45,915 nucleotides of DNA, taken from contig JAUWGT010000002.1 in the NCBI GenBank assembly GCA_030606265.1, positions 1 to 45,915 of the forward strand, given 5' to 3'. Of the stretch, positions 14,250 to 45,915 are shown in pieces. The translations under genes and the position numbers were made by a program. Origin of the DNA: Candidatus Stahliibacteriota bacterium (GTDB taxonomy: Bacteria > Hydrothermota > Tepidihabitantia > SM23-42). Under the pieces are notes generated by a model. It made no database searches and had not been told where the DNA came from. It was given only the letters and a program-made list of their open reading frames with translations. Every line of letters begins with the position of its first letter. Position 1 is the stretch's first letter.

Positions 14250-14262
14250 AAACAAACAAATC

Positions 14263-16444: not shown

Positions 16445-16472
16445 TAGGTTAGAAAAAGCTTTCATGTTTGGC

Positions 16473-16500: not shown

Positions 16501-16515
16501 ATCTTCAGTTGGAAT

Positions 16516-28977: not shown

Positions 28978-28989
28978 TCCTACCTCCAA

Positions 28990-29580
28990 TCAGGGTATAA
29001 AGATATTGAGTCCAATACCATGCTCCCAGATCTTTTCATCTTTATCAAAATACCCGTATTTCTCAAGCTCGGCACTCGCAATATAATTGTAGCGTGTTGT
29101 ATATTCAAGAGCGATATATTTGACCGGTCTAAGCTCCAATGTGAAACCACCGACAAAACCGACGTCCCTTTCTGACATTTCTGTATCATCAGGTAGGACA
29201 ACGACTGAACCATTGTCCAGAGCACGCCATAGATAAAGTCCAAAACCTGTTTCAAGCGTGAAGCTGAACCAGGTGGGTTCAATAAATGGAAGAAGGTCAA
29301 AGCTCGTGCATAGCGTCAGCGGGATAAATTCATATTCATAAGTATCCGTGGCGGCTACTGCCGGATAGGTTACCATGTTGCCTCTGAGTTTCAAACCTAT
29401 ATGTGGTATAAAATTCCTTATCTCCAGCTCGCCACCAAATCCCCACTCACCTCTTGGATCTTCATCATCTTGATACAAGTAATTATAAGAGTAATGGGGA
29501 CTGAAGGAAAGCATGATCCCGTTGTTTCCATTAGCTGCTGCGACCAATATGGGTAAACTCAATAAGAGAAGTTTCTTCAT
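28990..29580 (-). CDS. Putative small outer-membrane beta-barrel protein
   Basis: Signal peptide MKKLLLLSLPILVAAA, then alternating hydrophobic/aromatic beta-strand pattern. First structural gene of the efflux operon. TGA stop. Confidence 0.5.
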   Translation of the reverse strand: MKKLLLLSLPILVAAANGNNGIMLSFSPHYSYNYLYQDDEDPRGEWGFGGELEIRNFIPHIGLKLRGNMVTYPAVAATDTYEYEFIPLTLCTSFDLLPFIEPTWFSFTLETGFGLYLWRALDNGSVVVLPDDTEMSERDVGFVGGFTLELRPVKYIALEYTTRYNYIASAELEKYGYFDKDEKIWEHGIGLNIFIP

Positions 29581-29581
29581 A

Positions 29582-30172
29582 TCACCTCCTTCTTTTCAAA
29601 CCATTAAAAAATAGTTCAAGTATTTCATTTTTGTCTATTTGTTTCTTTGGTACAATAAAATTGACAAAGAATCCAGTACGTATTGTGTTGAGATAATGCA
29701 AGGCTGCTACGTGCGGCTCAATTTTTCTGAATTCTTTTTTTGCGATACCTTGTTCAATGATCTTTGCGATAATATCGATCATTTCTTTTAAGCGGAAATT
29801 CATTATCGGCTTGACCGCCTTCATGATTTTGCTGGAAAGATTGATATTCTCCATGGAAAACATAAAGAAAGAGCTTTTCAGCTGGATCATGGTATCGATC
29901 CACTCGTCCGCGATTTTTTTCAGTTTTTTTGTGGACGTCATTGATTCTTTTTCAACTTCATGTAAATAATCAATACCCACTTTAAAATGTTCTTCAATGA
30001 CACTGACATACAAGGAAGCCTTATCCTTAAAATAAAGATAGAGAGTACCCTTGGCTATCCCCGTTGCCTGTGCAATGTCAGCTACTGTAGTTTTGAAAAA
30101 ACCTTCCTTGGCGAATATCCTCAGCGCGCAGTTTATGATTTTTTCCCGGGTATGTTGTTCTTTTGTTCTCAT
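29582..30172 (-). CDS. TetR/AcrR-family transcriptional repressor
   Basis: N-terminal HTH (IINCALRIFAKEGFFKTTVADIAQATGIAKGTLYLYF). Heads the efflux operon. A palindromic operator lies upstream. Confidence 0.9.
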   Translation of the reverse strand: MRTKEQHTREKIINCALRIFAKEGFFKTTVADIAQATGIAKGTLYLYFKDKASLYVSVIEEHFKVGIDYLHEVEKESMTSTKKLKKIADEWIDTMIQLKSSFFMFSMENINLSSKIMKAVKPIMNFRLKEMIDIIAKIIEQGIAKKEFRKIEPHVAALHYLNTIRTGFFVNFIVPKKQIDKNEILELFFNGLKRRR

Positions 30173-30636: not shown

Positions 30637-32922
30637 TCAAAGAGTCTCAAGTAATTTTTGAGACTCTTCTGAATTGGGGATTATCTTCAAAACCCTTTCC
30701 AGCACTTTTTTCGCATCCGCCATGTTTCCGCCACGACACTTGGCAGATAGCGTCCGCCTCTTTTTTTGGCGGATCTCATTATCATGTTCTAAACAACTCT
30801 TGACAAAATGCATCGTCTCGCCTTCCAATTCATTCAAAATCACCCTCCGCATGTGCTCGGACCAGGGGTCGTACATTTTACGGAAGGGCTCACCGCGGAA
30901 CATCCTAAATGCTCTTAAATATTCTTTCTTTGCAAACACCCATTCGCCTGCGCGTTTGAGTGCCTTTGCCCGGGTAATAGTCTCTTCATAAAATTGATAA
31001 TCGGTCGTAATATATCCTTTAAAATTAAGAAAGCCACTTTTTATAAAAAGGGTATTTGGCGGTAACTTAAGATATTTTCGAAAACTGTACAAAAGATGTG
31101 AAAGCGAACCTTTTGGATCTTTGGCATGTGACCAGAAATTCTCATACAACGATTCCAAAATTGTTTTTTTGTTAAAGCTAAGGTGAATTAGAAAACTCGC
31201 ATACATTGGTGTGGGCTCATGTCGAAGCCTTACACCATTACGATAGATACATACAGGACCTAAAAATCTTAAATGGTAAACAGGAATATTTTTTTGGAAA
31301 ACAGGCAATTTCAACAACGCCTTAGGCAATCCCGTAGGTTTTCCTTTCACAAGAAGTTTGTTCACTGGCCCGGGGAAGAAAAGAACCAACCGATGAAACA
31401 ATCCCATAAGTTGCTGAGAAGTTGCGTAATTAAAAGCTTTTCTATAATCTTTTATTTTAAAGGAGTGTGAAACCTTGTGCAATAGGAAAGCGACTTTTAG
31501 CTCGGGGCTTAAGGTTGCATCTTTTGGTACAATATCTTGACCAAGGAGAATGCGTGTTAGTAGGAAATCATATCCCATCCTGGTTTTTTTCAACATTGGA
31601 GATATACTCCTGATAAGTGCCTTTGCCTTTTTCTCTTCACCAAAAGCACACAAGCAGCAGCTACAGATCATGGAGGTGGTCGCAACGTATTTATGAATTG
31701 TCTCTTTTTTTGATTGGCAAAGGGCTTGATTGGCAAATTTCACGGCTTCCTGAAGTTTCCCTTCACCAATGAGACACTGTGCTTCAATAATTTTACGCAG
31801 AGTTTTTAAACCTCTTTTTTCTATATAAAGGTTTTTTAAAATCTTCCTTGCATTGCGGTACTCTCCTGCTTTAGCAAAATACCCAGCACGCAATTCATGC
31901 AGAACCATTTTGCTCTCGGCTTTAGCGTATTCAAGACTTCTCAACAACCATGAACGCGCTTTTTTGAACGAACCGATCATAGAATAAAGTGCGGCAATGT
32001 CACTGCAGAATGAAGAAGTTGACAAACGGCGGCAGATAGTTTCGCATTTCCTAATACAGGAGAGAGCTTCTCTAATTCTTCCAAGGATACCAAGTGCAAT
32101 TCCTTCTGAGACAAGAAGGTTAAAGCGCAGAATGGTATTACTATTATCACGTTTTTCATGTTTTCTCCTCAATTTCGCCAAAAGTCTATTTACAAGAACA
32201 AGCTGCTTTTCAGGATTCTCTACCCATGCCATTGCATCTAGCTCAGAACATCCTGCACGTATGGAGAGGTATAGGAGATCTTTTTTTTGTGCCTTTATCC
32301 GCAGATTCCTTGCTTTCCTCATGGTCTTTCGAAACGGAATTTCACCAAATGTAAGGTCAAGTTTTTCGACCCTTCTTGGAAGGGCGAGAAGTCTGTCAGG
32401 AATTCTTTTGAGAATTTCCTTTCCAGCACAAGAAGGAAGGGCATTCAAAATTTGCGCTGCCTTTCTTGTATCTCCTTCATTCAACGCCTGCTCAGCTTTT
32501 TTCAAACCATCCTGCATCTCTGGAGTTATCTCATTTTTTTCATTCGATTGAGAATCACTTCTGCGAAAACCCATCAAATTATACCTGTTCCATATGCACC
32601 AAATTCCTTTGATGGAGATTTTAATCCCATTTTCATTTAGAATATCTCGCGCTTCGGAAAGAGTGAAAGAAGGTTGTTTTTCTTTCAGCATAACAATATT
32701 CTTTTCAATCAAAGGTGCAAATCTCTTTAGATGTCTTTTATATATTTTTTTTCTTCTTAGGTTCTCGTTACCTCCATCTTGACGCAATTTTATCCATCGC
32801 CTGAGTGTTCTTTGATGAATATTGAAGGAAAATGCAACTTCCTTTAAGGAACCCGATATTAGATACTTTTCTACAGCCTGGATTCGATTTTGATACCCAA
32901 TATGTCCTTTAGACAATTTCAT
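30637..32922 (-). CDS. Large regulator A: transposase-type HTH + TPR-like region + winged-helix/BTAD (SARP-like) C-terminus
   Basis: N-terminus SLKEVAFSFNIHQRTLRRWIKLRQDGGNENL plus FTLSEARDILNENGIKISIKGIWCIWNRYNL (IS630/Tc1-like HTH pair, no DDE domain). Helical repeat middle. C-terminus YHLRFLGPVCIYRNG...LYENFWS...SLSHLLYSFRKYL, then BTAD-like AKALKRAGEW..A...Y..A..MFRGEPF. Confidence 0.65.
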   Translation of the reverse strand: MKLSKGHIGYQNRIQAVEKYLISGSLKEVAFSFNIHQRTLRRWIKLRQDGGNENLRRKKIYKRHLKRFAPLIEKNIVMLKEKQPSFTLSEARDILNENGIKISIKGIWCIWNRYNLMGFRRSDSQSNEKNEITPEMQDGLKKAEQALNEGDTRKAAQILNALPSCAGKEILKRIPDRLLALPRRVEKLDLTFGEIPFRKTMRKARNLRIKAQKKDLLYLSIRAGCSELDAMAWVENPEKQLVLVNRLLAKLRRKHEKRDNSNTILRFNLLVSEGIALGILGRIREALSCIRKCETICRRLSTSSFCSDIAALYSMIGSFKKARSWLLRSLEYAKAESKMVLHELRAGYFAKAGEYRNARKILKNLYIEKRGLKTLRKIIEAQCLIGEGKLQEAVKFANQALCQSKKETIHKYVATTSMICSCCLCAFGEEKKAKALIRSISPMLKKTRMGYDFLLTRILLGQDIVPKDATLSPELKVAFLLHKVSHSFKIKDYRKAFNYATSQQLMGLFHRLVLFFPGPVNKLLVKGKPTGLPKALLKLPVFQKNIPVYHLRFLGPVCIYRNGVRLRHEPTPMYASFLIHLSFNKKTILESLYENFWSHAKDPKGSLSHLLYSFRKYLKLPPNTLFIKSGFLNFKGYITTDYQFYEETITRAKALKRAGEWVFAKKEYLRAFRMFRGEPFRKMYDPWSEHMRRVILNELEGETMHFVKSCLEHDNEIRQKKRRTLSAKCRGGNMADAKKVLERVLKIIPNSEESQKLLETL
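30923..30970. repeat. 48-nt block identical to 36824-36871
   Basis: tctttctttgcaaacacccattcgcctgcgcgtttgagtgcctttgcc is present in both regulator paralogues. Flanking DNA differs at many positions. Confidence 0.9.
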
Positions 32923-32930
32923 GGAAAAAT

Positions 32931-32957
32931 TGTATATAAAACAAGACCTTTTGTCAA
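32931..32957 (-). promoter_or_regulatory. sigma70-type promoter (minus strand), TTGACA / 15 nt / TATACA, for regulator A
   Basis: Reverse complement of 32952-32957 and 32931-32936. The ATG at 32922 starts 9 nt after the -10 with no SD, so the mRNA is near-leaderless. Confidence 0.35.
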
Positions 32958-33070
32958 GAGAAAAAATTAAGAGGTTATAAAGCCTCTAAAATCAACAATT
33001 TATGATAAGAATTAATTGCCTCAAAATACATATTTATGTTTATAATAATGCAAAATAGAAGGAGGCTTTA

Positions 33071-36000
33071 ATGGAAGGTAAAAATATAATGTTGCGAGTT
33101 GTTGTTTTAACAACGCTCTTGACTGCACACAGCTTCGCGGCAAACTCGATATGGCACATGCCGAATGGAAGCAGTCGGGATCAGGCTAACGAAATTCTGA
33201 ACAGCGAGAATAAATATGTCTCTGGCGAATTATTAGTAGGATTCTATCCTTCAATCGGTCTGGCACAAACTAAAGCCATCCATGTGAAACACAGTTGTAC
33301 CATTATCAGCATTAATAACAAAGCAGGTTTTCATCGTGTAAGAATCCCACATTCTGCTAATGTAGAGGAAATGATTCAACAGTATCAGACAAACCCCTCG
33401 GTCAGATTTGCTGAACCCAATTATATTGCGCATGCAATGAAGATTCCCAATGACCCTTCGTATGGAAGCCAATGGGGTCTGCCCAAGATTGATGCTCCTC
33501 AGGCATGGGATACAACAACGGGCAGTAGTTCTATAATGCTATCAGTTCTTGACACCGGGGTTGATTATGACCACCCGGATTTAGATGGTGGTAAGGTGCG
33601 CACCGACATTGACTGGGATTTTTACAACAATGACGATGATGCAATGGATGACCATGGCCATGGCACACATTGTGCGGGGATATTAGGTGCTGATACTGAT
33701 AATGGCGTAGGGGTTGCCGGACTCAATTGGTTATGTCAAATATTACCGCTTAAGGTCCTCAACAACAGTGGTGCCGGATATTATTCAGACATCGCCGATG
33801 GCATAACCTATGCCACTGATCACGGCGCTAAGGTCTTATCTCTCAGTCTTGGCGGTCCTTCCTGGTCATCAGCGATGGTGGGAGCGGTTGATTATGCTTA
33901 CTCCAACAATGTAATAATTGTTGCCGCTTCCGGAAATGATTATGCCCAAAAACTGGTTTATCCAGCAGCTTATAATGAGGTAATTATGGTAGGTGCTAGT
34001 GACTCTAATGACGATCGAGCAGTTTTCAGTAATTATAATACTGAGCTTGATGTCATGGCGCCAGGCGTGAATATATACAGCACTTTGTGGGATAACACTT
34101 ACGCCAATATGAGTGGTACTTCCATGGCAACCCCTCATGTAGCTGGTCTTGCCGGGTTGATATTAGCGAGGAATCCTTCATTGAACAATGAAGAGATAAG
34201 ACAAATATCAAGACAATTTGCTGATGATATCGAAAATCCAGGCTGGGATATTTATTCAGGATACGGAAGAATAAATGCCTATCAGTCAGTTCTGAATGCT
34301 ATTGCATCTCCAGGTGTGGCATGGATACACCATCCTCAGGTTTATGGATATCTAAACCATTTTTCTGGCGTAGATACCGTATATGTAGTCGGAACCACTT
34401 CAGGTGCGTATTCCCTATATTATGGTGAAGGAACAAATCCTTCTTCCTGGATAAACTTTGCCAATGGTGGTTCAGCAATTAGTGATGATACCCTTGGATA
34501 TTGGAATCCAGGTGGGAGTGACAAGGGAATATTTACTATCAAACTGGTGTGTGGACCGGCTGAGGACAGGGTAGTAGTAAAAATAGAGGAACCAGAAATG
34601 CCGGGATGGCCGGTAATGGCCAATAGCTACTGGACAAGTCCTGCTCCGGTCATGGTAGACATTGATGGTGATGGGACTACTATGGAACTTATCGCAGCCA
34701 AGGACGAGTCCCTCTTTGTATGGCGATATGATGGAGCTATACTCAGTGGTTGGCCCCAGGCAATACTGGGCGGTAACGAGTACTACATATGGCATCACAA
34801 TGGACCTGCTATTGGAGATGTAGACGGAGACGGTGATCTGGAGATTGTGGTCTCTAACAGCCCATCTTTTGATAATGCTCCTGGCGAGCCAGGATATGAG
34901 GTGAACAGGTATGTATGGTTATTTCATCATAATGGAACCTTGATGAGCGGCTGGCCCAAATATATTTCAGAGGGTGTTAGTTCACCACCAGTTTTGAGCG
35001 ACCTGGATAATGATGGTGATCTGGAGATACTCATTGGTTCTGGAGATGTCAATATAGATGATTATGCACGTGTTTATGTCTGGCATCATAATGGCACACC
35101 ATTTCCGGGCTGGCCCCAGCAGATTATCAGTGTAACGAAGCAACCTTGTTACCAACCTCCAATAGTAGCTGACCTGGAAGGCAATGGAAGCCTCGAGATT
35201 GTAGTTTTCTCTGGTGCGGACGAATGGGCTACTGTTGACAGAACGGTCAGGATATATGCTACTAATGGTTCTTTGATAAGATCATGGGTAGTTGATGCAA
35301 ATATGTTCGGAAAGTTTCCTCGTCCACCTGGTGTAGTTGGTGATATTGATAATGACGGAGATATGGAGATCATAGTCGGTGCTTCTGAATATGGTTTTGG
35401 TTCAGATACAGGATTCTGCCACGTTGAAGTCTGGCATCATGATAGTACTGTGGTAAGCGGCTGGCCAGTCAATATAAGCGACTGCATTGCATTGAGTCTT
35501 GGCGATCTTGAGGGCGATGGGCAATTGGAGATATTCGGCGCCTCGGGTAGTGCATTTAATGGCAATTGTCGGGTATTTGTCTTTCGCAATGATGGCACCA
35601 ATGTGCCAGGTTGGCCTGTTTCCCTGGGAGAAGGCGTTGTTTTATTTTCACCTCCAGCTGTTGCTGATGTAGACGGGGACGGAGATATGGAAGTAATGGC
35701 ATCTGCCTCGCATCTTAATATGGGCATATATGTCTGGCACCATAATGGCACGCCACTCAATGGATTCCCAATAACCTTTCTTGACAATGGTTCGACTGCG
35801 ACACCTACTTTGGGAGACCTTGATGGAGATGGTGATCTTGAAGTGGCGCTTCCCACAAGTGGTTACGGTATCCAGGGGAAGATGCATGTCTGGGACTTGA
35901 CGGGTCCATATAATCCTCCTTTAATTGACTGGGGAATGCACCAGCACGATCTTTGGCACACTGGTTGGTACCATCCAAAGCCACCAACCGGGTTGTTAGC

Positions 36001-36559
36001 AACCCCAGGAACTGATTGGATCGATTTAACTTGGTACTCTAATACAGAGCCTGACATTACGGGATACAATGTCTATCGTAGTATTAGTGCGGGTGGTTCT
36101 TATACTAAAGTCAATATCGATCTGATTACAGATACCACTTATCACGATGCTGGTCTTATACCTGGACAGACCTATTTCTATGTTGTAACAGCAAGGATTA
36201 AGGCACAAACTGAAAGTCGTTACTCAAGCGAGGTGAATGCTATCATTATTGGAGTAACTGAAGACGCAAACTCCAGTATAATAACGCCGTTTCTGAGCAT
36301 ACAGCCCAACCCATCTTTAATGCAAGATCTAAGGATCTCATTTGGTGTTTCCCATGGAACTACAGTAAGACTGCAGGTTTTTGACGTATGCGGTCGGGTA
36401 GTGGTGACTCTTAATAACAGAAAGATGACTTCGGGAATTTATTTATTTAGATGGAATAGAAAGGATAAAAATGACCGTACAATTCCCAGTGGTGTTTACT
36501 TTGTGCGGTTAGATACGAAAGAATTCAAGAAGACAAAAAAAATGATACTACTGCAATGA
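33071..36559 (+). CDS. Subtilisin-family (S8) serine protease with FG-GAP beta-propeller, Fn3 and T9SS sorting domains
   Basis: Signal peptide. I9-like propeptide. Catalytic triad contexts LDTGVDYDHPDL, HGTHCAGI, SGTSMATPHVAG. Seven GDxDGDGDLE-type FG-GAP calcium loops. Fn3-like LTWYSNTEPDITGYNVYR. C-terminus IQPNPS...VFDVCGRVV...SGVYFVRL...KKMILLQ. AAGGAGG SD. Confidence 0.9.
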   Translation: MEGKNIMLRVVVLTTLLTAHSFAANSIWHMPNGSSRDQANEILNSENKYVSGELLVGFYPSIGLAQTKAIHVKHSCTIISINNKAGFHRVRIPHSANVEEMIQQYQTNPSVRFAEPNYIAHAMKIPNDPSYGSQWGLPKIDAPQAWDTTTGSSSIMLSVLDTGVDYDHPDLDGGKVRTDIDWDFYNNDDDAMDDHGHGTHCAGILGADTDNGVGVAGLNWLCQILPLKVLNNSGAGYYSDIADGITYATDHGAKVLSLSLGGPSWSSAMVGAVDYAYSNNVIIVAASGNDYAQKLVYPAAYNEVIMVGASDSNDDRAVFSNYNTELDVMAPGVNIYSTLWDNTYANMSGTSMATPHVAGLAGLILARNPSLNNEEIRQISRQFADDIENPGWDIYSGYGRINAYQSVLNAIASPGVAWIHHPQVYGYLNHFSGVDTVYVVGTTSGAYSLYYGEGTNPSSWINFANGGSAISDDTLGYWNPGGSDKGIFTIKLVCGPAEDRVVVKIEEPEMPGWPVMANSYWTSPAPVMVDIDGDGTTMELIAAKDESLFVWRYDGAILSGWPQAILGGNEYYIWHHNGPAIGDVDGDGDLEIVVSNSPSFDNAPGEPGYEVNRYVWLFHHNGTLMSGWPKYISEGVSSPPVLSDLDNDGDLEILIGSGDVNIDDYARVYVWHHNGTPFPGWPQQIISVTKQPCYQPPIVADLEGNGSLEIVVFSGADEWATVDRTVRIYATNGSLIRSWVVDANMFGKFPRPPGVVGDIDNDGDMEIIVGASEYGFGSDTGFCHVEVWHHDSTVVSGWPVNISDCIALSLGDLEGDGQLEIFGASGSAFNGNCRVFVFRNDGTNVPGWPVSLGEGVVLFSPPAVADVDGDGDMEVMASASHLNMGIYVWHHNGTPLNGFPITFLDNGSTATPTLGDLDGDGDLEVALPTSGYGIQGKMHVWDLTGPYNPPLIDWGMHQHDLWHTGWYHPKPPTGLLATPGTDWIDLTWYSNTEPDITGYNVYRSISAGGSYTKVNIDLITDTTYHDAGLIPGQTYFYVVTARIKAQTESRYSSEVNAIIIGVTEDANSSIITPFLSIQPNPSLMQDLRISFGVSHGTTVRLQVFDVCGRVVVTLNNRKMTSGIYLFRWNRKDKNDRTIPSGVYFVRLDTKEFKKTKKMILLQ

Positions 36560-36570
36560 CAGTAATACAA

Positions 36571-36603
36571 GAGGCTTAGCCTTAAAAATAAAGGCTAAGC
36601 CTC
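36571..36603. terminator. Perfect 13-bp hairpin between convergent genes (no clear U-tract)
   Basis: GAGGCTTAGCCTT aaaaata AAGGCTAAGCCTC. Overlaps the stop codon and last codons of regulator B. Confidence 0.45.
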
Positions 36604-38808
36604 TAATAAAGCCTTTATTTCTCCCGAATAAGGGATTATTTTAACAACCTTCTCCAGCACTTTCTTCACGTCCTTCTTGTTCCCGTGCTCTAAACAACTC
36701 TTTGCAAAGTGAATGGCTTCACTCTCCAATTCATTCAAGATCACCCCACGCATATGCTCTGACCAGGGATCATACATTTTCTTAAATGGCTCACCGCGGA
36801 ATAAAGCAAATGCCCTTAAATACTCTTTCTTTGCAAACACCCATTCGCCTGCGCGTTTGAGTGCCTTTGCCTGCGCAAGTGTTTCTCCAAAGAGTTTATA
36901 GTCGGTAGTAAAATAAAAATCCCAACGTAAGAAATCACCGTGAATTCTTATTAAATGTGAAGGTAATGAAAGATTTCTTTTAATGCGCACTAAAAGATGG
37001 GATAAATTTCTTGCTGGTTTCAGACTTTGAGACCAGAAGTTGCGGTATAGTTCTTTTAACGCTATTTTACGGACTTTGCTAATCGACAGATGAATAATAA
37101 ACGATCTGTCTTTTGGGCTTAACTTCAACCTCGAGATCGGTTTTTCTCCTTTAAGAATACTGAATCTGCCAAGAAATCTAAGGTGATATACAAAAGGTTC
37201 GATCTGAAAGGCTGGCATCTTTAGAAAAGCTCTGGGTAATCCAGAGTTCTTACCTTTTTTCAAGAGTTGTACTACTGGTTCCGGATAAAACAAGACAAGA
37301 CGTTCAAAGAGACCAAAAAGCTTCCGGGAACGAGCATACCTCAATGCTTTCTGGTAATCCTTTGCTTTTAAACTTATTCTTGCCTGATAAGAAAGATAAG
37401 CCAAGCGAAGATTAGGCACAAGTAGGGCTTTTTTTGGTAAATTAGTATCCCCTAAAAGAATCTTTCGTAGAAGATATTCCTTTTCCAATCGGTATTTTTT
37501 AAATAGTGTGTTATATTTTCTCAATAGAACTTCTGCTTTTTTCTTCTCACCCATCGCAGCATGACAACAAGCAAGGATAAAAGTAGCAAGATGGAGAAAT
37601 CTTCTAATTTCCTCTTTTTTCGATTGTACCAATGCTTGTACTGCAAATGCAGACGCCTTTTGAAAATCGCCTTGATCAAGATAGGCAAATGCTCTAAAAA
37701 GAGATGCCCGTGAATGGTAATCCCATTCCTTTGGTCTCCCTTCTTTTAGAACTTTCAAGGCAGCACGGTAATCACCCGCGGTTGTAAGGAATCCGGCAAG
37801 GCTTGCAAGGAGATGCTTTCGATAATCTGGATTAGCCCCTTTAAGAGCCTTTGTTGCCCATGATATTGCTTCGCGGTAATACCCTAATACAGAATAGAGT
37901 CCGGTTAATTCGCCCATGAAAAAACATGGGTCAGGAAGGTTTCTGATGATTATCTTGCATTTCTTAACACATTTCAGTGCTTCCGGAATTCTAAGGAGGG
38001 TTCCTAATGCATGTCCTTCAAATAGCAAAATGGTGAAGCAAAGACCAGAATCTCTTAACCCCTTTGTTTTTCTTCTTAATATGCTTACTAATTCTAACAT
38101 CCCCTTTGGCTCGCCTAACCACATCAAGGCATAACCTTGTTCAATACCAGCCCGAAGTGAAGAATAGTACATTTTCTGTTTTTCTAATTTCATTCTGAGT
38201 TTCTCAGCCTTTCTACGATAAACAGAAAGAGGAATCGCTCCAAACTCACTACTGAGTCTGTCAACCTGCCTTTTTGTCGACAGCAGTTGTTCTGGGATTT
38301 CCTTAATAATCTCAGGATAAGGAAAAACTGAACAGGAATTGATAATTTTCGCTGCCCCTGTCAGGTTTTTCTCGCTAATCATTTTCTTTATTCTTTGTTT
38401 TGTCCGTGGAGAAACAGAGGTAGTATTTTGATACTCTCTATATGAAGTGCATAATCGCTCTTTTACAAATCCAATCAACCCATGCCTTTGCCAAATACCC
38501 CAGATACATTTTGTTGAAACCTGTATTCCCTTTTGCTTGAGCATATCTTGTGCCTTACGAACAGTCAAGGATGGAATCAGTTCCTTCAATCCAACAATCT
38601 CATCTTCAATTATCTCTGGCGTTCTTCTCCAGTGCTTTTCAGTATGTTCTCCTCTTATTAGTTTTTCAGTACCGCCCTCTTTATACCATCTTACCCATCG
38701 CCAGAGCGTATTTCGGTGGATTTTGTACATAGCTGCTTTCTTTCTCAAAGAACCTTGTGAAAGGTAATCCTTGACTGCCTGAGTTCTTGTTTTAGTATCG
38801 ACCTTCAT
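36595..38808 (-). CDS. Large regulator B (paralogue of regulator A)
   Basis: Same architecture: SLRKKAAMYKIHRNTLWRWVRWYKEGGTEKL, LTVRKAQDMLKQKGIQVSTKCIWGIWQRHGL, helical repeats, YHLRFLGRFSILKGE, AKALKRAGEWVFAKKEYLRAFALFRGEPF. ATG 38808 is preferred. The track start TTG 38859 coincides with the -35 hexamer of the gene's own promoter. Confidence 0.65.
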   Translation of the reverse strand: MKVDTKTRTQAVKDYLSQGSLRKKAAMYKIHRNTLWRWVRWYKEGGTEKLIRGEHTEKHWRRTPEIIEDEIVGLKELIPSLTVRKAQDMLKQKGIQVSTKCIWGIWQRHGLIGFVKERLCTSYREYQNTTSVSPRTKQRIKKMISEKNLTGAAKIINSCSVFPYPEIIKEIPEQLLSTKRQVDRLSSEFGAIPLSVYRRKAEKLRMKLEKQKMYYSSLRAGIEQGYALMWLGEPKGMLELVSILRRKTKGLRDSGLCFTILLFEGHALGTLLRIPEALKCVKKCKIIIRNLPDPCFFMGELTGLYSVLGYYREAISWATKALKGANPDYRKHLLASLAGFLTTAGDYRAALKVLKEGRPKEWDYHSRASLFRAFAYLDQGDFQKASAFAVQALVQSKKEEIRRFLHLATFILACCHAAMGEKKKAEVLLRKYNTLFKKYRLEKEYLLRKILLGDTNLPKKALLVPNLRLAYLSYQARISLKAKDYQKALRYARSRKLFGLFERLVLFYPEPVVQLLKKGKNSGLPRAFLKMPAFQIEPFVYHLRFLGRFSILKGEKPISRLKLSPKDRSFIIHLSISKVRKIALKELYRNFWSQSLKPARNLSHLLVRIKRNLSLPSHLIRIHGDFLRWDFYFTTDYKLFGETLAQAKALKRAGEWVFAKKEYLRAFALFRGEPFKKMYDPWSEHMRGVILNELESEAIHFAKSCLEHGNKKDVKKVLEKVVKIIPYSGEIKALLEA
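36824..36871. repeat. 48-nt block identical to 30923-30970
   Basis: See 30923-30970. Confidence 0.9.
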
Positions 38809-38831
38809 GTTTGTCACTAATCTATGGAAAC

Positions 38832-38859
38832 ATTCTATATACTCTTGGACTTTTGTCAA
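38832..38859 (-). promoter_or_regulatory. sigma70-type promoter (minus strand), TTGACA / 16 nt / TAGAAT, for regulator B
   Basis: Reverse complement of 38854-38859 and 38832-38837. ATG 38808 lies 23 nt after the -10. Confidence 0.4.
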
Positions 38860-38967
38860 TAGAGGCTATATTCAAGCGATATTCCGTATCAGTAAATGCC
38901 TGGCACAAAGGTGTTTACGTAATTTCAGACACAACGCCAGATATATTTAAGTATACAAGGAGATATT

Positions 38968-40353
38968 ATGAAATTTTCGAGGTTATCTATTCTGGGAACG
39001 ATGCTGTTGATTTCTCTACCAATCTATGGGCAATCCTGGATCAAAACATATGGAGGAGACGCATGGGATTTTGGACATTCTGTTCAGCAAAGTCTGGATG
39101 GCGGCTATATCATCACAGGAAGGACAATGTCAGCTGGCGCAGGAGGAGAAGATCTTTATCTTATTAAGATTGATGCTAACGGAGATACTATCTGGTCCAA
39201 GACATACGGTGGAGCAAATTCTGATGGAGGATGCTGTGTCCAAAAGACATCAGATAGTGGGTACGTTATCGTCGGTCGAACATTATCATTCGGTGCTGGA
39301 TATGTGGACGTCTGGCTTCTGAAGACTGATTCGTTAGGGGACACACTCTGGACAAAGACATACGGAACTTCAAATGAGGATTGGGGATATTTTGGACAGC
39401 AAACCATGGATGGTGGTTATATCATCACTGGTTACCAGATGTTTTCCCCAGGAGAAGGGGATGTTTGGCTCATAAAAACCGACGAATCTGGAAATGTATT
39501 GTGGACAAATACCTTTGGTGGGTCAAATTATGATGAAGCTCGTTCTGTGAGACAAACTCCTGATAAAGGATACATCATCTGTGGAACGGATAATTTTAAC
39601 ACATCCAACTCAGAACTCTACCTTATCAAGACAGATTCTCTTGGTAGCGAAGAATGGTCCAAGACATACGGCGGAGCGTTAATGGATTATGGACTTGGTA
39701 TAGCACTAACATCAGATGGAGGATATATTGCAGTAGGGAAAAAAACTATTTCAGGAGTTGCAGGACAAGCCTATTTAGTTAGAGTCACTAGCAATGGGGA
39801 TACTCTATGGACAAAAGTTTTCGGAGGAACAGCCGAAGACTATGCTCACTCTGTTCAAGAAACTTCCGACAGTGGTTTTATCATAGCTGGTTCGATTGGG
39901 ATTCCAACGAACCACTATGGTTATCTTATCAAAACCGAACCCTCAGGAGATAGCCTGTGGTCAAAAACCTACGGTGGTTCACCAAGAAATCACAACTTTT
40001 TCTCTGTCCAGGAAACTAATGATGGCGGATATATCTGTGTGGGATCTATATCAGGTGATTATGATGTTTATGCTGTCAAGACTGATACTAACGGAAATGT
40101 CGGAATTAAAGAGGATATGGAAACAAGGAAGGAGAAACAAAATGCAGGATTGTTTGCGTCGCCCAATCCTTTTGTCTCCTTTACAACCGTGCCAGGATTT
40201 GAAAGGGAGAAATTTTTAGTCTACGATATTCAGGGTCGCTTGATAGAAAAATACCCTGGAAATCGTATTGGTGAAGATTTATGTGCAGGAGTATATTTCT
40301 TGAAATTCGCGGGGCGGGACAGTAAATTGGTGCGGGTGGTAAAAATACAGTAA
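38968..40353 (+). CDS. Beta-propeller repeat protein with T9SS sorting domain
   Basis: Signal peptide. About eight ~48-aa repeats W(S/T)KTYGG...D.G.SVQ.T.DGGYII.G......D.(W/Y)LIKTD..G. C-terminus ASPNPF...VYDIQGRLI...AGVYFLKF...VRVVKIQ. AAGGAG SD. Confidence 0.8.
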   Translation: MKFSRLSILGTMLLISLPIYGQSWIKTYGGDAWDFGHSVQQSLDGGYIITGRTMSAGAGGEDLYLIKIDANGDTIWSKTYGGANSDGGCCVQKTSDSGYVIVGRTLSFGAGYVDVWLLKTDSLGDTLWTKTYGTSNEDWGYFGQQTMDGGYIITGYQMFSPGEGDVWLIKTDESGNVLWTNTFGGSNYDEARSVRQTPDKGYIICGTDNFNTSNSELYLIKTDSLGSEEWSKTYGGALMDYGLGIALTSDGGYIAVGKKTISGVAGQAYLVRVTSNGDTLWTKVFGGTAEDYAHSVQETSDSGFIIAGSIGIPTNHYGYLIKTEPSGDSLWSKTYGGSPRNHNFFSVQETNDGGYICVGSISGDYDVYAVKTDTNGNVGIKEDMETRKEKQNAGLFASPNPFVSFTTVPGFEREKFLVYDIQGRLIEKYPGNRIGEDLCAGVYFLKFAGRDSKLVRVVKIQ

Positions 40354-40364
40354 GGAGGTATATT

Positions 40365-43300
40365 GTGTTTGCAGAATATAAACGTGTGATTGGCGTATTC
40401 CTATTGGCGGGAATTCTTCATCCCATGTTTGGTCAAACCCAGGAATGGGTTTACACATATAATGGGTCAACTGATGAACATGATCGGTTCAACAGTATTG
40501 TCTATGGTGGAGATGGAAATATCTATGTGTCTGGTTTTTCTGATGTCCAATGGCCCTCTTTACCTGGGGATTTTATCATAGTGAGCTTTGACACCTCAGG
40601 AACTGAACGCTGGTTTTATCGTCAAGCATTCGGTAGTGCAAGTTATCCTGCTTCTAAAATAATATGGGCAGGAGATGGAAATATATATGCTGGAACCTCG
40701 AACTTTGTGATCAGTTTAACACCTTCTGGAACTGAACGCTGGGTTTATTCAGATGCATCAAGTGTCAACTCCATAGACTATGGTAGTGATGGAAATCTCT
40801 ATATTGCTTCTGGTAATGATGTAATTAGTCTTACCACTGGAGGTGTTGAACGCTGGGTTTATCCTGGAATAGGCTATGGATATGACATCGTGTATGGTTC
40901 AGACGGCAATATCTATATTGCTTCGAAGAAAGATGACAAATTTACTGTAGTGAGTTTAACGTCAGGCGGTAATGAACGCTGGATATATTCATATAATGGT
41001 CCACTTGATGATGATTATGCAAAATCTATTGTCTTTGGCTCAGATGGCAATATCTATGCTGCAGGTAAGATTAGAACTGACCACTATAGTGATCTTTTTG
41101 TAGTGAGTTTGACTCCTTCAAATGTAGAACGATGGACATATATATACAGTGGACCGGGTGCTTACTGGGATTATGCAGCAGATATGACCATGGGCTTAGA
41201 TGGAAATCTCTATGTAACAGGAAAGGGTGGTTATGGGGGGAGCCAGGGTGATATCATTATTTTGAGTTTCACCCCTTTAGGTAACAGACGCTGGCTTTAT
41301 AACTATAATGGACCTGGAGGGAGTTCAGACTGCGCCTATGCTGTTTCCTATGGTCTGGATGGGAATATTTATGTTAGTGGTGAAAGTGTGGGGTTTGGTT
41401 CCTATGATGCTGTTGCCATATCCCTTACACCATTTGGCAATAAGCGTTGGGTATACCGGTATAATGGAGGAGATGAGGATGCCTCCTGGTCTTCTATTTA
41501 TGGTTCAGATGGAAGACTTTATATCTGCGGTGATACATACAGAAATATCCCAACTTTCAATGCAGACCTTCTCCTTATTAAGGTCAACCCGGGTGCAACT
41601 GGGGTATCTGATATCAGTACAAATCCAGCGGAACTGATCTTTGATTTTAGTAGCAAGGACTACCAGGATTCTTGGTGCCCGTCTGAAACAAGAGTATCAT
41701 CTGTCGTGCCGATTGCCCAAGATCTGATCGAAAAGTTAGAAAATTTACCTGCCTATGAGTTAATTCCCATTATCATTTTGATGTCCGAACAATTAAATAC
41801 CACTGCATTACAGGATCAAATACGTGATTTGCCAAAAACCGAACGCAGGAGTTTTGTTACATCAAAAGCAAAATCTCTGGCGCAGAGGACTCAGGAACAG
41901 ATACTCTCTTTTTTGGATGTTAAGAAATCAGAAGGCAAGGCAAATGACATCAGTTCCTTGTGGATTGTGAATTCTATTTCAGCCGAAGCATCATCTGATG
42001 TGATCCGTGAACTCTCTAAAATGCCGGGAGTCTGTCAGCTTTGGTTTGACGGAGATTATTTTCACGCCTTAGAAGATATCGGTCCGAAGAGAAAAATTAT
42101 TACAAGAGATATTGCCTGGGGCGTAGAAAAGATCAGGGCTAATGATGTCTGGAATAACCTGGGCTATACAGGCAAAGGCATAATTGTTGGGGTTCTTGAT
42201 ACTGGGGTTAGATGGAGCCATCATGATCTGGAAGACCATATGTGGGATGGTGGTACATTATATCCTCATCACGGCTGGAATTTTGTAAGTGATCACAACT
42301 CACCTGCTGATGATAATGGACACGGCACACATGTTGCCGGCACGATTGCCGGTGATGGAACATCAGGGACTCAAACCGGGGTTGCTCCTGATGCCCAGAT
42401 AATGGTGCTGAAGATCTTGAACTCATCAGGTAGTGGAAGTCTTTCAGATATGGCAAAAGCAGTCCAGTTCGCAGTTGACCACAATGCTGATATTGTTAAT
42501 GTATCTGTGGGTTCGGCTAATCCAAGTGACGGAACAAAAGATTATTGTCGGGATATGTGTAATATGGCATATGCTGCTGATCTACCAATGGCGATTGCTG
42601 CAGGAAATGGTGATGGCGCGGGTGGGCATTTTGCCATACCTTACGACATCTACACACCCGGTGATGTTCCTGCTCCCTGGTATGGCAGTACCGGGCATAG
42701 TGCATCAATGACAGTTGGCGCAACCGATAACAATGACATTATTGCGGGCTTCTCAAGTTATGGGCCTACCCAGTGGAATACATCGATTTATGCTGATTAC
42801 CTTTATCCCCCAGGTTTGATAAAACCTGATGTAAGTGCACCAGGTGTAAATATCACGTCGCTTCTTCATACAAGTGCATCAGGATACACTATCAAAAGTG
42901 GTACTTCAATGGCAACACCCCATCTTGCCGGCACCATCGCGTTGATACTTGAAAAGAATCCCTTTCTAACCTGTTCGCAAATAGATAGTATCATTGAAAA
43001 CTTCGGCGTTGTTGATCTCGGAAATCCTGGTAAAGATACTTACTACGGCGCTGGTCGGCTTGATGCCTATGATGCAGTAGAAGCAGTTCAGGCAACTGTA
43101 GCGGAAAAAGGAGTTTTCTATATTAGAAATGCTGCCTCAGCAACCGGGAACCTGGAATTCGATGAACTTTCATGGCAGGCAAATTGGATAACAGAAGCGA
43201 TCCCTGCCTCCTATGCTGTTGGACCTGGAGAATCAACCGTTGTTAAGGTCTATGTAGATACGAGCGGTCTAGCGTCTGGAACATACTGGGACACACTCCG

Positions 43301-43682
43301 GATATACTCTAATGATCCCAATGAAAACCCTTATTCTGAGCCTGTTTGCCTGATAACAGGAATTGTCGGGATTGAAGAAACTGAAAAGACAAGCCAATTG
43401 CCGATGGCGAATACATTGTATCATACCAGTCCTAATCCATTTAGGTCAGCGACTCAAATTAATTACAGCGTAGCAAACGAGAGCAAGGTTAAGCTTGTTG
43501 TGTATAATGTTTTGGGACAACAGATAAAAACCTTGGTAAATAAAAAACTGTTGCGTGGTCATTACGAGACAACCTGGGATGCAAAGGATGATAAAGGACG
43601 CAAGATGTCTGATGGAATTTACTTTGTACGATTAGAATCTGAAGGATTTAAGCAAACCCAAAAAGTGATTCTGCTCAAATAG
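40365..43682 (+). CDS. Subtilisin-family (S8) serine protease with N-terminal beta-propeller repeats and T9SS sorting domain
   Basis: GTG start 6 nt after AAGGAGG. About nine repeats ERW(V/I)Y....(Y)GSDGNIY(I/V). Catalytic triad LDTGVRWSHHDL, HGTHVAGT, SGTSMATPHLAG. C-terminus SPNPF...VYNVLGQQI...WDAKDDKGRKMSDGIYFVRL...QKVILLK. Confidence 0.9.
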   Translation: MFAEYKRVIGVFLLAGILHPMFGQTQEWVYTYNGSTDEHDRFNSIVYGGDGNIYVSGFSDVQWPSLPGDFIIVSFDTSGTERWFYRQAFGSASYPASKIIWAGDGNIYAGTSNFVISLTPSGTERWVYSDASSVNSIDYGSDGNLYIASGNDVISLTTGGVERWVYPGIGYGYDIVYGSDGNIYIASKKDDKFTVVSLTSGGNERWIYSYNGPLDDDYAKSIVFGSDGNIYAAGKIRTDHYSDLFVVSLTPSNVERWTYIYSGPGAYWDYAADMTMGLDGNLYVTGKGGYGGSQGDIIILSFTPLGNRRWLYNYNGPGGSSDCAYAVSYGLDGNIYVSGESVGFGSYDAVAISLTPFGNKRWVYRYNGGDEDASWSSIYGSDGRLYICGDTYRNIPTFNADLLLIKVNPGATGVSDISTNPAELIFDFSSKDYQDSWCPSETRVSSVVPIAQDLIEKLENLPAYELIPIIILMSEQLNTTALQDQIRDLPKTERRSFVTSKAKSLAQRTQEQILSFLDVKKSEGKANDISSLWIVNSISAEASSDVIRELSKMPGVCQLWFDGDYFHALEDIGPKRKIITRDIAWGVEKIRANDVWNNLGYTGKGIIVGVLDTGVRWSHHDLEDHMWDGGTLYPHHGWNFVSDHNSPADDNGHGTHVAGTIAGDGTSGTQTGVAPDAQIMVLKILNSSGSGSLSDMAKAVQFAVDHNADIVNVSVGSANPSDGTKDYCRDMCNMAYAADLPMAIAAGNGDGAGGHFAIPYDIYTPGDVPAPWYGSTGHSASMTVGATDNNDIIAGFSSYGPTQWNTSIYADYLYPPGLIKPDVSAPGVNITSLLHTSASGYTIKSGTSMATPHLAGTIALILEKNPFLTCSQIDSIIENFGVVDLGNPGKDTYYGAGRLDAYDAVEAVQATVAEKGVFYIRNAASATGNLEFDELSWQANWITEAIPASYAVGPGESTVVKVYVDTSGLASGTYWDTLRIYSNDPNENPYSEPVCLITGIVGIEETEKTSQLPMANTLYHTSPNPFRSATQINYSVANESKVKLVVYNVLGQQIKTLVNKKLLRGHYETTWDAKDDKGRKMSDGIYFVRLESEGFKQTQKVILLK

Positions 43683-43906: not shown

Positions 43907-44131
43907 TCATTTCCGTTTCTCCGATACTCCGTTACCCCCATACTCCCGTACCATCTTTTCTATCTCTTCTGAATTAGAAATTATCTTGGTAACCCTCTCA
44001 ACCACTCTCTTCGCATCCGCTCTATTCCCGTGTTCAAAACAACTTTTCGCAAAGTGTAGTACCTCACTCTCCAATTTATTTAGTATCACCCGGCGCATTG
44101 TTTCTGAAGTATCAAAATACCCATACTTGAC
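43907..44131 (-). pseudogene. 3' remnant of a third regulator paralogue
   Basis: Encodes ...MRRVILNKLESEVLHFAKSCFEHGNRADAKRVVERVTKIISNSEEIEKM, which aligns with the last ~60 aa of regulators A and B (HMRRVILNELEGETMHFVKSCLEH...AKKVLERVLKIIPNSEE). No upstream domains. Its 5' side runs into the oppositely oriented GGDEF gene. Confidence 0.6.
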
Positions 44132-44159
44132 ACCGAAAACTTGAGAGTTATAATCGCAA

Positions 44160-45915
44160 ATGAAGGCTAAGAGACCCTCACGATTGGCAATTGTTGATCA
44201 CCTTACAGGTTTATACAACCGTCGACATTTTGATAAATGCTTGAAGAAGTTTATCTTAGAGGCAAAAAAGAAGAAAAAACATTTTTCTCTATTAATGATT
44301 GATATTGATAAATTTAAGGACGTAAATGATAAATATGGACATCTGGTGGGAGATACGGTTTTAAATGATTCAGCAAAAGTTTTGAAAGCCTCAGTGCGTA
44401 AGCCCGATATCTGTTTTCGCTATGGCGGTGACGAGATCGCAGTTCTCTTACCTAATGCTGACCAAAAGACGTCCGGAAATATTGCGGTGCGTTTAAAGAG
44501 CAAGGTCGAGAAATATAAATTCGCTACTAAAAATGGACTTAAGTTGCGTTTAAAATTGAGCATTGGTTTGGCAGTTTTCCCGGCCGATGGGCAAAAGCCT
44601 GAAGATTTAATCAAACAAGCTGACGTATTGTTATATAAGGTAAAGAGTAAGAAAAAAACGACAAGGAAAATCACTGAACCGTTCGTCTTAGAGACTAAAC
44701 TTATCCCTCCAGGACTAAAAGAAAATACGATTTCCCGTCCTAAATTGCTCTCTTTACTTAAGAAAAATTTTAATAAGAAGTTGATTCTTATCATCGCTGA
44801 TGCCGGTTATGGCAAGACGACACTTCTTTCTCATATGATAGAAGATAAAAAATCGCCTTATGTCTTTTATGATTTAGACAGATCGGACAGCGATTTCGCG
44901 GTCTTTTTCTCTTATTTAATGCATGGCTTTGAGCAGACCGATCCTGGCTTGGTAGAACGTTCCCGGCTGTTATCAACGCAAGGAGGAGAGATTGTAAGGA
45001 ACTATGAATTGGTGATGGGGACATTAATCAACGAGTTGGTGGAAAAGCTAAATGAGAAGTTGTTTATTTTCCTAGACGACTATCATAGCCTTACCGAGGA
45101 CAGTTTGGTCCATAAGGCATTAGATTATTTTATCGACCATTTGCCGGCTATGGTCTACGTAGTAATTGCCTCGCGTTCGATTCCTCCGCTCGTTTCATTG
45201 ACTAAGTGGCGGTCCAAACAGGATCTGTTTGAACTCGCGCGAGAAGAACTGCGGTTTACGGCTGAGGAATTGAAGACGTTACTCGCTGACGTTTACAAGA
45301 TGGCCCTTGGTGAAGATGAGTTGATGCGGGTTACGTCGGAGACCGAAGGTTGGATTACAGGAATACAACTCACTCTGCAATCAGCCGAAAAAGACGGAAA
45401 CACCTTGAAGCAGACCTTGAATGGCTACTTGGAGTCGAATCAGCCTTTGTTTAAATATTTTGCCAATGAGATTTTTAACGGTGAGCCGTTAGCGGTAAAG
45501 GATTTCTTGTTGAAAAGTTCGGTCCTAGACATTATGACGATCGAAGCATGCAATTGCGTTTTAGAAATAAAAGATTCAAAAAGATTACTGAGTGATCTTG
45601 AGAAACGTAATCTATTTGTCTACTCGATTGGCAAAGGAGAGTATAGGTATCATCGTCTTTTCCAACAGTTCCTAGAAGAGCATAGCAGGAATAAGAAATT
45701 TAGGAGAGGGCTCAATCTCAAAGCCGCAAAGTACTATCAAAAGAAAGGACAATTGGAACGAGCGGTCCGATATTATTTAGATGCTGAAAGTTATAGATTT
45801 GCCAGTAACGCGATCGTCAGGATGACCAAAGACATGGTGGAACAAGCACGATTTTCTACACTCCAAGACTGGCTCCAGCAAATTCCGGAAAGTATGTTTG
45901 AGAAACAGCCGTATC
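44160..45915 (+). CDS. GGDEF domain fused to MalT/LuxR-type STAND NTPase (partial, 3' end outside window)
   Basis: Not in the ORF track because no stop lies inside the window. 585 open codons from ATG 44160. GGDEF core DHLTGLYNRRHF, DIDKFKDVNDKYGHLVGD, RYGGDEIAVLL with RKPD I-site spacing. Then P-loop IIADAGYGKTTL, Walker B LFIFLDDYH, and MalT-like ETEGWITGIQL and YRYHRLFQQFL. Confidence 0.8.
   Translation, partial: MKAKRPSRLAIVDHLTGLYNRRHFDKCLKKFILEAKKKKKHFSLLMIDIDKFKDVNDKYGHLVGDTVLNDSAKVLKASVRKPDICFRYGGDEIAVLLPNADQKTSGNIAVRLKSKVEKYKFATKNGLKLRLKLSIGLAVFPADGQKPEDLIKQADVLLYKVKSKKKTTRKITEPFVLETKLIPPGLKENTISRPKLLSLLKKNFNKKLILIIADAGYGKTTLLSHMIEDKKSPYVFYDLDRSDSDFAVFFSYLMHGFEQTDPGLVERSRLLSTQGGEIVRNYELVMGTLINELVEKLNEKLFIFLDDYHSLTEDSLVHKALDYFIDHLPAMVYVVIASRSIPPLVSLTKWRSKQDLFELAREELRFTAEELKTLLADVYKMALGEDELMRVTSETEGWITGIQLTLQSAEKDGNTLKQTLNGYLESNQPLFKYFANEIFNGEPLAVKDFLLKSSVLDIMTIEACNCVLEIKDSKRLLSDLEKRNLFVYSIGKGEYRYHRLFQQFLEEHSRNKKFRRGLNLKAAKYYQKKGQLERAVRYYLDAESYRFASNAIVRMTKDMVEQARFSTLQDWLQQIPESMFEKQPY

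Follow-up and report, generated by a model that had tools for sequence, protein, structure and literature searches.

Among the bacteria of candidate division WOR-3 (Candidatus Stahlbacteria) we find what is most likely a lineage-wide, multi-copy family of locus-specific regulators of proteins exported by the type IX secretion system (T9SS), as judged from domain architecture, synteny, and cis-elements. Two members are encoded in a 45,915-nt stretch of DNA from a Candidatus Stahliibacteriota bacterium (contig JAUWGT010000002.1, positions 1 to 45,915; hereafter the window), wherein each faces a divergently transcribed gene or operon for T9SS-secreted cargo. A previous reading of this DNA, which we call the first-pass annotation, had taken the two modules for a dedicated system of sensor-regulators and secreted proteases, and the family described here is broader. 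Each regulator unites an N-terminal transposase-derived double helix-turn-helix (HTH), a central set of TPR-like repeats, and a C-terminal winged helix fused to BTAD, which is the output module of SARP regulators. The two modules are composed of the following features.

30637..32922, minus strand: regulator A (RegA), 761 aa, with a double HTH, TPR-like repeats, and a C-terminal winged helix plus BTAD
32929..32957, minus strand: RegA promoter, TTGACA-N17-TACAAT, with the ATG located 6 nt past the -10 element and a leaderless mRNA
33028..33046, plus strand: cargo promoter A, with box ACATATTT, the 5-nt spacer atgtt, and TATAAT, lacking a -35 element
33071..36559, plus strand: cargo A (S8 protease A), 1162 aa
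36570..36604, no strand assigned: perfect 14-bp inverted repeat AGAGGCTTAGCCTT-N7-AAGGCTAAGCCTCT between the convergent ends of the cargo A and RegB genes
36595..38808, minus strand: regulator B (RegB), 737 aa, with the same architecture as RegA
38832..38859, minus strand: RegB promoter, TTGACA-N16-TAGAAT, followed by a conserved GTTTCC
38929..38947, plus strand: cargo promoter B, with box ACACAACG, the 5-nt spacer ccaga, and TATATT
38968..40353, plus strand: cargo B1 (propeller protein), 461 aa, with a signal peptide, an SBBP-like beta-propeller (WSKTYGG repeats), and a T9SS sorting domain
40365..43682, plus strand: cargo B2 (S8 protease B), 1105 aa, with a propeller (YGSDGNIY repeats), an S8 subtilase, and a T9SS sorting domain

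The five open reading frames (ORFs), their coordinates, and the common layout of both modules agree with the first-pass annotation. Divergent partners are separated by 148 bp (RegA and protease A) and 159 bp (RegB and the propeller protein). The two regulators share 44% identity over 717 aa (E = 0) and are true paralogs. Alternative upstream starts for RegB exist at a GTG (38817) and a TTG (38859), wherein the alignment of homologs favors 38808 or 38817. Because cargo B2 begins 11 nt past B1, these two genes are probably co-transcribed, and the inverted repeat between the two modules is probably a bidirectional terminator.

The N-terminus of the regulators matches the NCBIfam models for IS481 (E 1.5e-12, model positions 2-109 of 284) and IS630 (E 4.7e-7, positions 4-110 of 299) transposases, as well as the Pfam families HTH_23, HTH_28, and HTH_32. 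The latter three are found in 23 of 24 family members, and HTH_Tnp_IS630 is found in 12 of the 24. Matches in the PHROGs collection are likewise transposases, and profile comparison gave weak matches to the Sleeping Beauty transposase, both for the second HTH (HTH2, to 5unk, E 0.044) and for the first (HTH1, to the PAI subdomain 6urs, E 0.41). No rve/DDE domain was found in RegA or RegB at E <= 1, and none features in the 25 families that were found most often in the 24 members. The first-pass annotation had described an IS630/Tc1-type head devoid of a DDE domain. The transposase HTH and the missing catalytic domain are confirmed, and the best model is IS481, with IS630 second.

TPR families match the mid-portion of the regulators by sequence. 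An AlphaFold2 model of full-length RegB (pLDDT 86.4, pTM 0.78) has three-helix bundles at residues 5-45 and 65-108, a disordered linker, all-alpha repeats at 134-530, a beta/alpha winged helix with the beta-strand/helix/wing topology at 540-635, and a helical end at 636-736. Foldseek matches to this whole model include the SARP module of AfsR along with MalT domain III, Rap, and NprR. The central repeats superimpose on the last three with target-normalized TM scores of 0.57, 0.63, and 0.55, respectively. Neither the window regulators nor the 24 members match any P-loop NTPase family (NB-ARC or AAA_16), and thus the regulator is not a STAND protein.

The C-terminal domains could be assigned only from structure, because a whole-protein profile search against PDB sequences yielded only designed TPR proteins and no SARP. 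By Pfam, C-terminal BTAD is present below threshold in 17 of the 24 members (best E 2e-4), and Trans_reg_C is present below threshold in 8 of them. A separate model of RegB residues 530-737 (pLDDT 91.4) has as its six best PDB matches nothing other than SARP modules, namely those of AfsR (8k60, 8hvr) and EmbR (2fez), and beyond these AfsR and EmbR matches the E-value leaps from 5e-5 to 8e-2. EmbR 2fez superimposes on the module with a query-normalized TM score of 0.76 and a root-mean-square deviation of 3.2 A over 206 columns. The winged helix also matches OmpR/PhoB-family domains (VbrR, VanR, PrrA, and PhoP). The assignment of a winged helix plus BTAD is therefore clear from the predicted structure, wherein the SARP module occupies residues ~536-737 of 737. 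The three-part architecture first proposed from the letters alone is upheld throughout, by sequence models for the double HTH, by a TPR/MalT-III-like middle of ~400 aa, and by structure for the winged helix and BTAD. Its reversed order relative to classical SARPs also holds, as all SARP classes in a 2024 review carry the module N-terminally, and the same review describes SARPs as exclusive to actinobacteria (PMC10972967).

Close relatives of the window regulators are numerous and taxonomically restricted. A word-indexed search returned 26 close homologs whose source annotations are hypothetical protein, HTH, TPR, or "transposase." When 1.84 billion representatives were searched exhaustively with a profile, 177 clusters (50% identity) matched at E <= 1e-30 and just 303 at E <= 1e-10. 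Almost all complete members are ~730-760 aa in length and match end to end, and a full length of ~740 aa is kept down to 33% identity across the 177 clusters. The family is thus compact and sharply bounded. Species-representative genomes contain 111 relatives, and we retrieved 76 loci, most of which derive from metagenome-assembled genomes (MAGs) of candidate division WOR-3 or Ca. Stahlbacteria; none is labeled as an actinobacterium. A few relatives carry the labels Cloacimonadota, TA06, or Gemmatimonadota, which may reflect binning or naming. Copies per MAG reach at least nine (CSMAG_2146), at least eight (MFD12922_bin33), and at least seven (JZ-2_201709_bins_162), and the nearest genome match to RegB (85% identity) is in a Stahlbacteria MAG. 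On the basis of these matches, the family is almost confined to the WOR-3/Stahlbacteria lineage. A search of the accessible literature produced no description of this regulator family, of its domain combination, or of a connection between WOR-3 and T9SS regulation.

The cargo of the two window modules consists of secreted proteins with T9SS signatures. Both proteases match Peptidase_S8 in Pfam (E 6e-62 for protease A and 3e-54 for protease B), and both translations retain the catalytic D/H/S motifs DTG, HGTH, and SGTSMATPH. Protease A is ordered as a signal peptide, a fervidolysin-type prodomain, an S8 subtilase, an FG-GAP propeller, fn3, and a T9SS sorting domain. As originally noted for these proteins, S8 domains occur in both modules, FG-GAP repeats are confined to protease A among the window cargo, and SBBP/delta-60-type repeats (WSKTYGG and YGSDGNIY units) occur in the propeller protein and protease B. 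The type A sorting domain TIGR04183 scores 39.6, 24.8, and 38.4 bits in the three cargo proteins of these modules, where the cut-off is 23. Genes for the T9SS machinery itself (SprA, PorV, PorU, and others) are absent from the window.

The linkage of regulator to cargo is conserved across loci. In the first contexts examined, each homolog was divergent from a gene for a secreted beta-propeller protein. Module B is repeated exactly beside the relative P0002, with an orthologous 479-aa propeller protein and an 1119-aa S8 protease, and another locus carries two modules in tandem. Overall, the regulator is divergent from its upstream gene in 82 of the 85 copies whose upstream neighbor is visible. 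Pfam Por_Secre_tail is present in 49 of 68 complete divergent neighbors, and a local profile for the C-terminal sorting domain (CTD) is positive in 60 of 71 divergent neighbors (85%) versus 67 of 374 other flanking ORFs (odds ratio 25, p 2e-27). The cargo bodies among the 68 neighbors are diverse, and include BNR/sortilin (9), S8 (5), SBBP (5), Kelch (4), RCC1 (4), C25 peptidase (4), FG-GAP (4), and LVIVD (3). The C25 peptidases with T9SS sorting domains, for example that at 13036..16518 of locus L008, are gingipain-like.

An S8 protease is encoded in the divergent operon of 13 of 82 modules. The survey of related MAGs thus gives a divided answer to the first-pass annotation, which had coupled the regulator specifically to T9SS S8 proteases: linkage to T9SS cargo is conserved, and the S8 partner is found only in this minority. 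The notion of a "protease system" is too narrow, as the usual partner is T9SS-tagged cargo that most often forms beta-propellers, whereas the proposed linkage to secreted proteins and the modular, expandable character of the system recur across loci. The nearest relative of a regulator has homologous cargo in 41 of 75 cases, versus 7.2 expected. Regulator and cargo are inherited vertically as units. For relatives below 55% identity, the excess of homologous cargo is small (10 versus 5.9 expected), such that cargo is swapped across long evolutionary distances.

The divergent intergenic regions contain a shared promoter code. Counting of k-mers over 79 such regions found TTGACA in the regulator direction in 46 regions (3.8 expected), and found AATTGTGT, which corresponds to ACACAATT in the cargo direction, in 17 regions (0.7 expected). 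The cargo Shine-Dalgarno sequence and the cargo -10 element also were enriched. Of 83 divergent regions, 59 contain the composite ACACAATT-N5-TATAAT, and in 54 of these 59 the spacer is exactly 5 nt. If transcription begins ~7 nt past the -10 element, the box falls at about -25 to -18. The cargo promoters are devoid of a -35 element, with 2.7 of 6 matches to TTGACA versus 2.4 at random offsets. Classical SARP sites are repeated, whereas a search over offsets -8 to -80 found neither a direct nor an inverted duplicate of the box.

We constructed a position weight matrix (PWM) from the box sites and scanned ~1 Mb on both strands with a threshold of 12 bits or more. Among 88 matches, 61 (training sites included) are in divergent regions in the cargo direction. 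The remaining matches include 15 within ORFs and 8 in other intergenic regions, some of which are at contig edges beside a regulator; none of these 8 is upstream of a T9SS-tagged gene. Three window sites exceed 12 bits, located at promoter A (20.3 bits, the best), at promoter B (12.7 bits), and at position 36262 (13.4 bits), the last of which falls within the coding region of protease A and is probably a chance match. The window also encodes T9SS cargo that has no adjoining regulator, which includes an FG-GAP plus CTD protein (8685..10454, plus strand) and sortilin/BNR plus CTD cargo (19172..20512 and 20597..21526, plus strand), and none of these genes has a ACACAATT box. The rarity of the box away from regulators, and its absence from other T9SS cargo, tie this element to the regulator and not to T9SS cargo in general.

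Regulator promoters are near-consensus, with the form TTGACA-N16/17-TAnAAT followed by a conserved TTTCC directly past the -10 element. The start codon is at most 10 nt from the -10 element in 46 of 75 cases and at most 25 nt in 73 of 75, which suggests that regulator mRNAs are leaderless or nearly so. The distance from the regulator -35 element to the cargo box is 69-72 nt in 39 of 50 loci. In the window this interval is 71 nt for module A (32957 to 33028) and 70 nt for module B (38859 to 38929), and it is the length that is fixed, while the sequence of the spacer is not conserved. A candidate dyad in this spacer, TGAAA...TTTCA, was rejected because it reached a maximum of 3 per center versus 2-3 in shuffled controls. 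Similarly, the sequence CTTTTGTCAA common to both window intergenic regions proved to be just the TTGACA -35 element of the regulators' own promoters.

Conservation differs among the regulator domains: mean pairwise identity is highest in BTAD (61%), intermediate in HTH2 (47%) and the winged helix (44%), and lowest in the TPR core (26%). This distribution fits a constant output joined to a variable sensor. The recognition helix of the winged helix has a canonical form, RN[LF][SA]HLLVRI[KR]K, as in RegB (RNLSHLLVRIKR), whereas RegA (GSLSHLLYSFRK) has the divergent type of its clade (GSLSHLL...). Canonical helices are associated with ACAC-type boxes, and divergent helices with ACAT-type or undetected boxes (odds ratio 5.2, p 8e-4), while HTH2 is constant throughout as the box varies. 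Because it is not corrected for shared ancestry, the helix-box association is just a lead. Counting at the level of clades was abandoned when single-linkage clustering placed 55 sequences in one cluster.

From these findings we consider it probable that the modules are lineage-specific, self-contained units, wherein a locus-specific SARP-like activator switches on the adjacent T9SS cargo via the box, with a sensor for each cargo. The regulator would be a cytoplasmic one-component transcription factor that is made constitutively from a strong sigma-70-type promoter and a leaderless or near-leaderless mRNA. Its C-terminal SARP module would bind the single 8-bp box ACACAATT, 5 bp upstream of the cargo -10 element, and would replace the missing -35 contact ("sigma adaptation," as for AfsR) to turn on the neighboring gene or operon for T9SS cargo. 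The TPR/MalT-III-like domain, which is poorly conserved, may serve as the sensor of a signal, and because this domain varies among paralogs, each secreted protein would answer its own cue. The N-terminal double HTH may provide a second DNA contact within the fixed ~70-bp stretch between the promoters. The architecture, the linkage, and the promoter code with its geometry are observed features of these loci, and from them we infer activation over repression, the identity of the domain that reads the box, and a signal for the sensor.

This proposal has precedent in the AfsR transcription complex, wherein the direct repeats are 11 bp long and a SARP protomer touches the first 8 bp of each (PMC10936776). 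The downstream repeat of the AfsR target is located at -29 to -19, the -35 element is poor, and activation occurs by sigma adaptation; PafBC acts similarly through its -26 element (PMC10936776). Classical SARP sites are direct repeats spaced by 11 or 22 bp, with the 3' repeat located 8 bp from the -10 element (PMC10936776).

Several points weigh against the proposed activator. The WOR-3 cargo promoters have one box located 5 bp from the -10 element, where classical SARPs use at least two repeats and 8 bp. No box is recognizable in 24 of the 83 divergent regions, and the transcription start sites that place it were derived from the -10 hexamers. By sequence, BTAD and Trans_reg_C remain under the Pfam thresholds. 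The helix-box statistics ignore phylogeny, and some canonical helices pair with ACAT-type boxes. Finally, the box and both recognition helices are near-identical in many paralogs of one genome, such that one-to-one specificity is not accounted for.

This last point is the basis for a different view of specificity, according to which action is restricted in cis instead of being determined by DNA sequence. The protein, synthesized beside its own gene, might be captured immediately by the adjacent site through a cis-preference inherited from its transposase ancestor, or the two DNA-binding ends might clamp both promoters. We regard cis-restricted action as unlikely. It derives from the fact that paralogs, of which there can be at least nine per genome, have nearly the same box and helices and yet stay joined to their own cargo at a fixed 70 bp, and have leaderless mRNAs. 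If true, it would represent a new wiring of many parallel sensor-to-gene circuits by one DNA code, which could allow the members of a repertoire of secreted beta-propellers and proteases to be expressed independently or in a mutually exclusive manner.

Which domain reads the box can also be argued differently. No DNA-binding element of the family varies less than the recognition helix of HTH2, KGIWxIWKRYG, whose residues K100, W103, W106, and R108 are unchanged in 24 aligned homologs, as would suit a constant reader of a constant box. Conservation is slightly higher in HTH2 than in the winged helix (47% versus 44%), a single unrepeated box is atypical of SARPs, and domains like the transposase-derived double HTH bind the ends of transposons in a sequence-specific manner. 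Hence, the N-terminal double HTH might read the box while the SARP module mainly contacts RNA polymerase or touches DNA weakly and unspecifically. We hold this arrangement to be doubtful, because the position of the box beside the -10 element matches that of the SARP protomer in the AfsR complex (PMC10936776), because box variation follows the recognition helix of the winged helix and leaves HTH2 unchanged, and because BTAD, which is directly fused to the winged helix, needs RNA polymerase nearby to act.

A more distant reading assigns the box to another factor, such as an alternative sigma factor or a global regulator, and makes the TPR-SARP proteins repressors, autoregulators, or anti-activators. 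A single box common to all paralogs is what a shared trans-acting factor would require, the rigid 69-72 nt to the regulator's own promoter could signify autoregulation, and the conserved TTTCC past the regulator -10 element could be an operator. Nevertheless, this seems quite improbable to us, given that the box is nearly absent where no regulator adjoins, including at other T9SS cargo in the window and flanks, that a normal TATAAT -10 element with no -35 element is the signature of activator-dependent promoters, and that BTAD is an activation domain in every characterized SARP (PMC10972967). The first-pass proposal of a dedicated sensor-regulator-secreted-protease system, with the subtilase as its functional core, can claim that an S8 protease is present in both window modules, that the propeller and S8 pair of module B is conserved beside P0002, and that some regulator clades, the RegA clade included, are repeatedly paired with S8. 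We judge it very unlikely, and as a general statement it is contradicted by the loci: S8 is found in 13 of the 82 divergent operons, and most cargo is non-catalytic beta-propeller protein. Least plausible of all, to the point of being scarcely credible, is that these genes are decaying or non-autonomous derivatives of insertion sequences whose adjacency to cargo reflects insertion preference rather than regulation. Some members are annotated as "transposase" in their sources, the N-terminus matches IS481/IS630 models, and the window holds a truncated third copy; set against this, the genes lack a DDE domain, terminal inverted repeats, and plasmid or viral relatives, the length of ~740 aa is kept to 33% identity in 177 clusters, and the promoter geometry is fixed.

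Mobility of the head was considered in its own right. Terminal inverted repeats do not flank either window regulator gene, and searches of plasmid and viral collections returned no regulator relatives. These absences, together with the fixed geometry and the co-inherited cargo, suggest that the transposase head has been domesticated. The earlier suggestion that this head aided the spread of the modules is left unsupported by the same absences and by vertical inheritance as regulator-cargo units.

The family that emerges, for which a SARP-like activator is our preferred reading, shares parts with several known systems and coincides with none of those compared. Like the SARPs AfsR, EmbR, ActII-ORF4, and DnrI, its members have an OmpR-type winged helix directly fused to BTAD; like large SARPs they carry TPR repeats within the same protein; and like SARPs they are locus-specific and encoded beside their presumed targets. 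As with AfsR sites, the box overlaps the spacer/-35 region, accompanies a poor -35 element, and matches an 8-bp contacted unit (PMC10936776). Unlike SARPs, the WOR-3 proteins carry their SARP module C-terminally, have an additional double HTH at the N-terminus, and lack an NB-ARC/NOD ATPase. Their box is single rather than a set of tandem 11-bp repeats and is separated from the -10 element by 5 bp instead of 8 bp, their phylum is WOR-3 and not Actinobacteria, and their targets are secreted proteins and not biosynthetic gene clusters. Thus, the output module is SARP-type, yet its position in the protein, the architecture of its site, and its taxonomy are not those of the SARP family.

The union of a repeat sensor and a DNA-binding domain in one polypeptide is reminiscent of MalT/LAL (STAND) regulators and of the RRNPP proteins Rap, NprR, and PlcR. 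Unlike these, the WOR-3 regulators have no P-loop NTPase, their HTH belongs to neither the LuxR nor the XRE type, and they have two DNA-binding modules instead of one; no gene for a signaling peptide, as in RRNPP systems, is evident. With IS481 and IS630-Tc1 transposases they share the bipartite paired-like N-terminal HTH (model positions 2-110), and unlike them they have no DDE domain, terminal inverted repeats, or evidence of mobility. In Bacteroidota, hybrid two-component systems linked to polysaccharide utilization loci, SusR, and extracytoplasmic function sigma/anti-sigma pairs provide many paralogous regulators, each beside the surface or secreted genes that it controls. The WOR-3 modules resemble these in genomic logic, and the families and mechanisms are unrelated, as here the regulator would be a soluble one-component protein with a SARP output.

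The family therefore places a SARP output module C-terminally instead of N-terminally, in an uncultured and distant phylum, behind a domesticated transposase head, and beside genes for secreted proteins instead of antibiotics. The box, the spacer rule, and the promoter geometry together constitute what is apparently the first candidate regulatory code for WOR-3 T9SS cargo, and such a code would make co-regulated secreted proteins predictable from sequence alone. It also raises the sharp question of how many near-identical DNA readers can be gene-specific, and the variable TPR sensors represent candidate ligand-responsive switches from an unexplored lineage.

The window contains additional features in the neighborhood of the modules.

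43949..44119 (about), minus strand: remnant of a third regulator, of which the last ~60-75 residues (BTAD plus tail) are left
44160..45915, plus strand: 5' part of a gene for a GGDEF diguanylate cyclase fused to a STAND/AAA ATPase, 585 aa, continuing past the window end
21644..23518, plus strand: Ser/Thr protein kinase with a C-terminal Cache-like sensor domain
23738..30172, minus strand: TetR-family regulator, small ORF, outer-membrane factor, membrane-fusion protein, and AcrB-type RND pump, directly upstream of module A

The remnant, which is absent from the first-pass annotation, has 51% identity to RegA residues 684-758 (tblastn, E 6e-15) and also appears as the DNA repeats D5 and D7. It stops where the promoter of the GGDEF gene starts, and this abutment suggests module decay or rearrangement; the truncated copy beside the GGDEF gene implies that modules decay as well. 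The GGDEF-STAND gene has a perfect TTGACA-N16-TATAAT promoter (44127..44154, plus strand) with the ATG 5 nt past the -10 element, and we rejected the alternative that the right end of the window is non-coding, since this gene lies there and is cut by the window edge. Rfam and tRNA scans of the window found nothing.

The genes from 23738 to 30172 look like an ordinary efflux operon unrelated to the regulator modules, and the small ORF within it (28990..29580) has no Pfam match. With respect to the Ser/Thr kinase, AfsR-type SARPs are regulated via Ser/Thr phosphorylation. Elsewhere in the family, ~1060-aa proteins with GGDEF, AAA_16, and TPR_MalT domains adjoin regulator modules at two loci, L001 (three copies) and L008.

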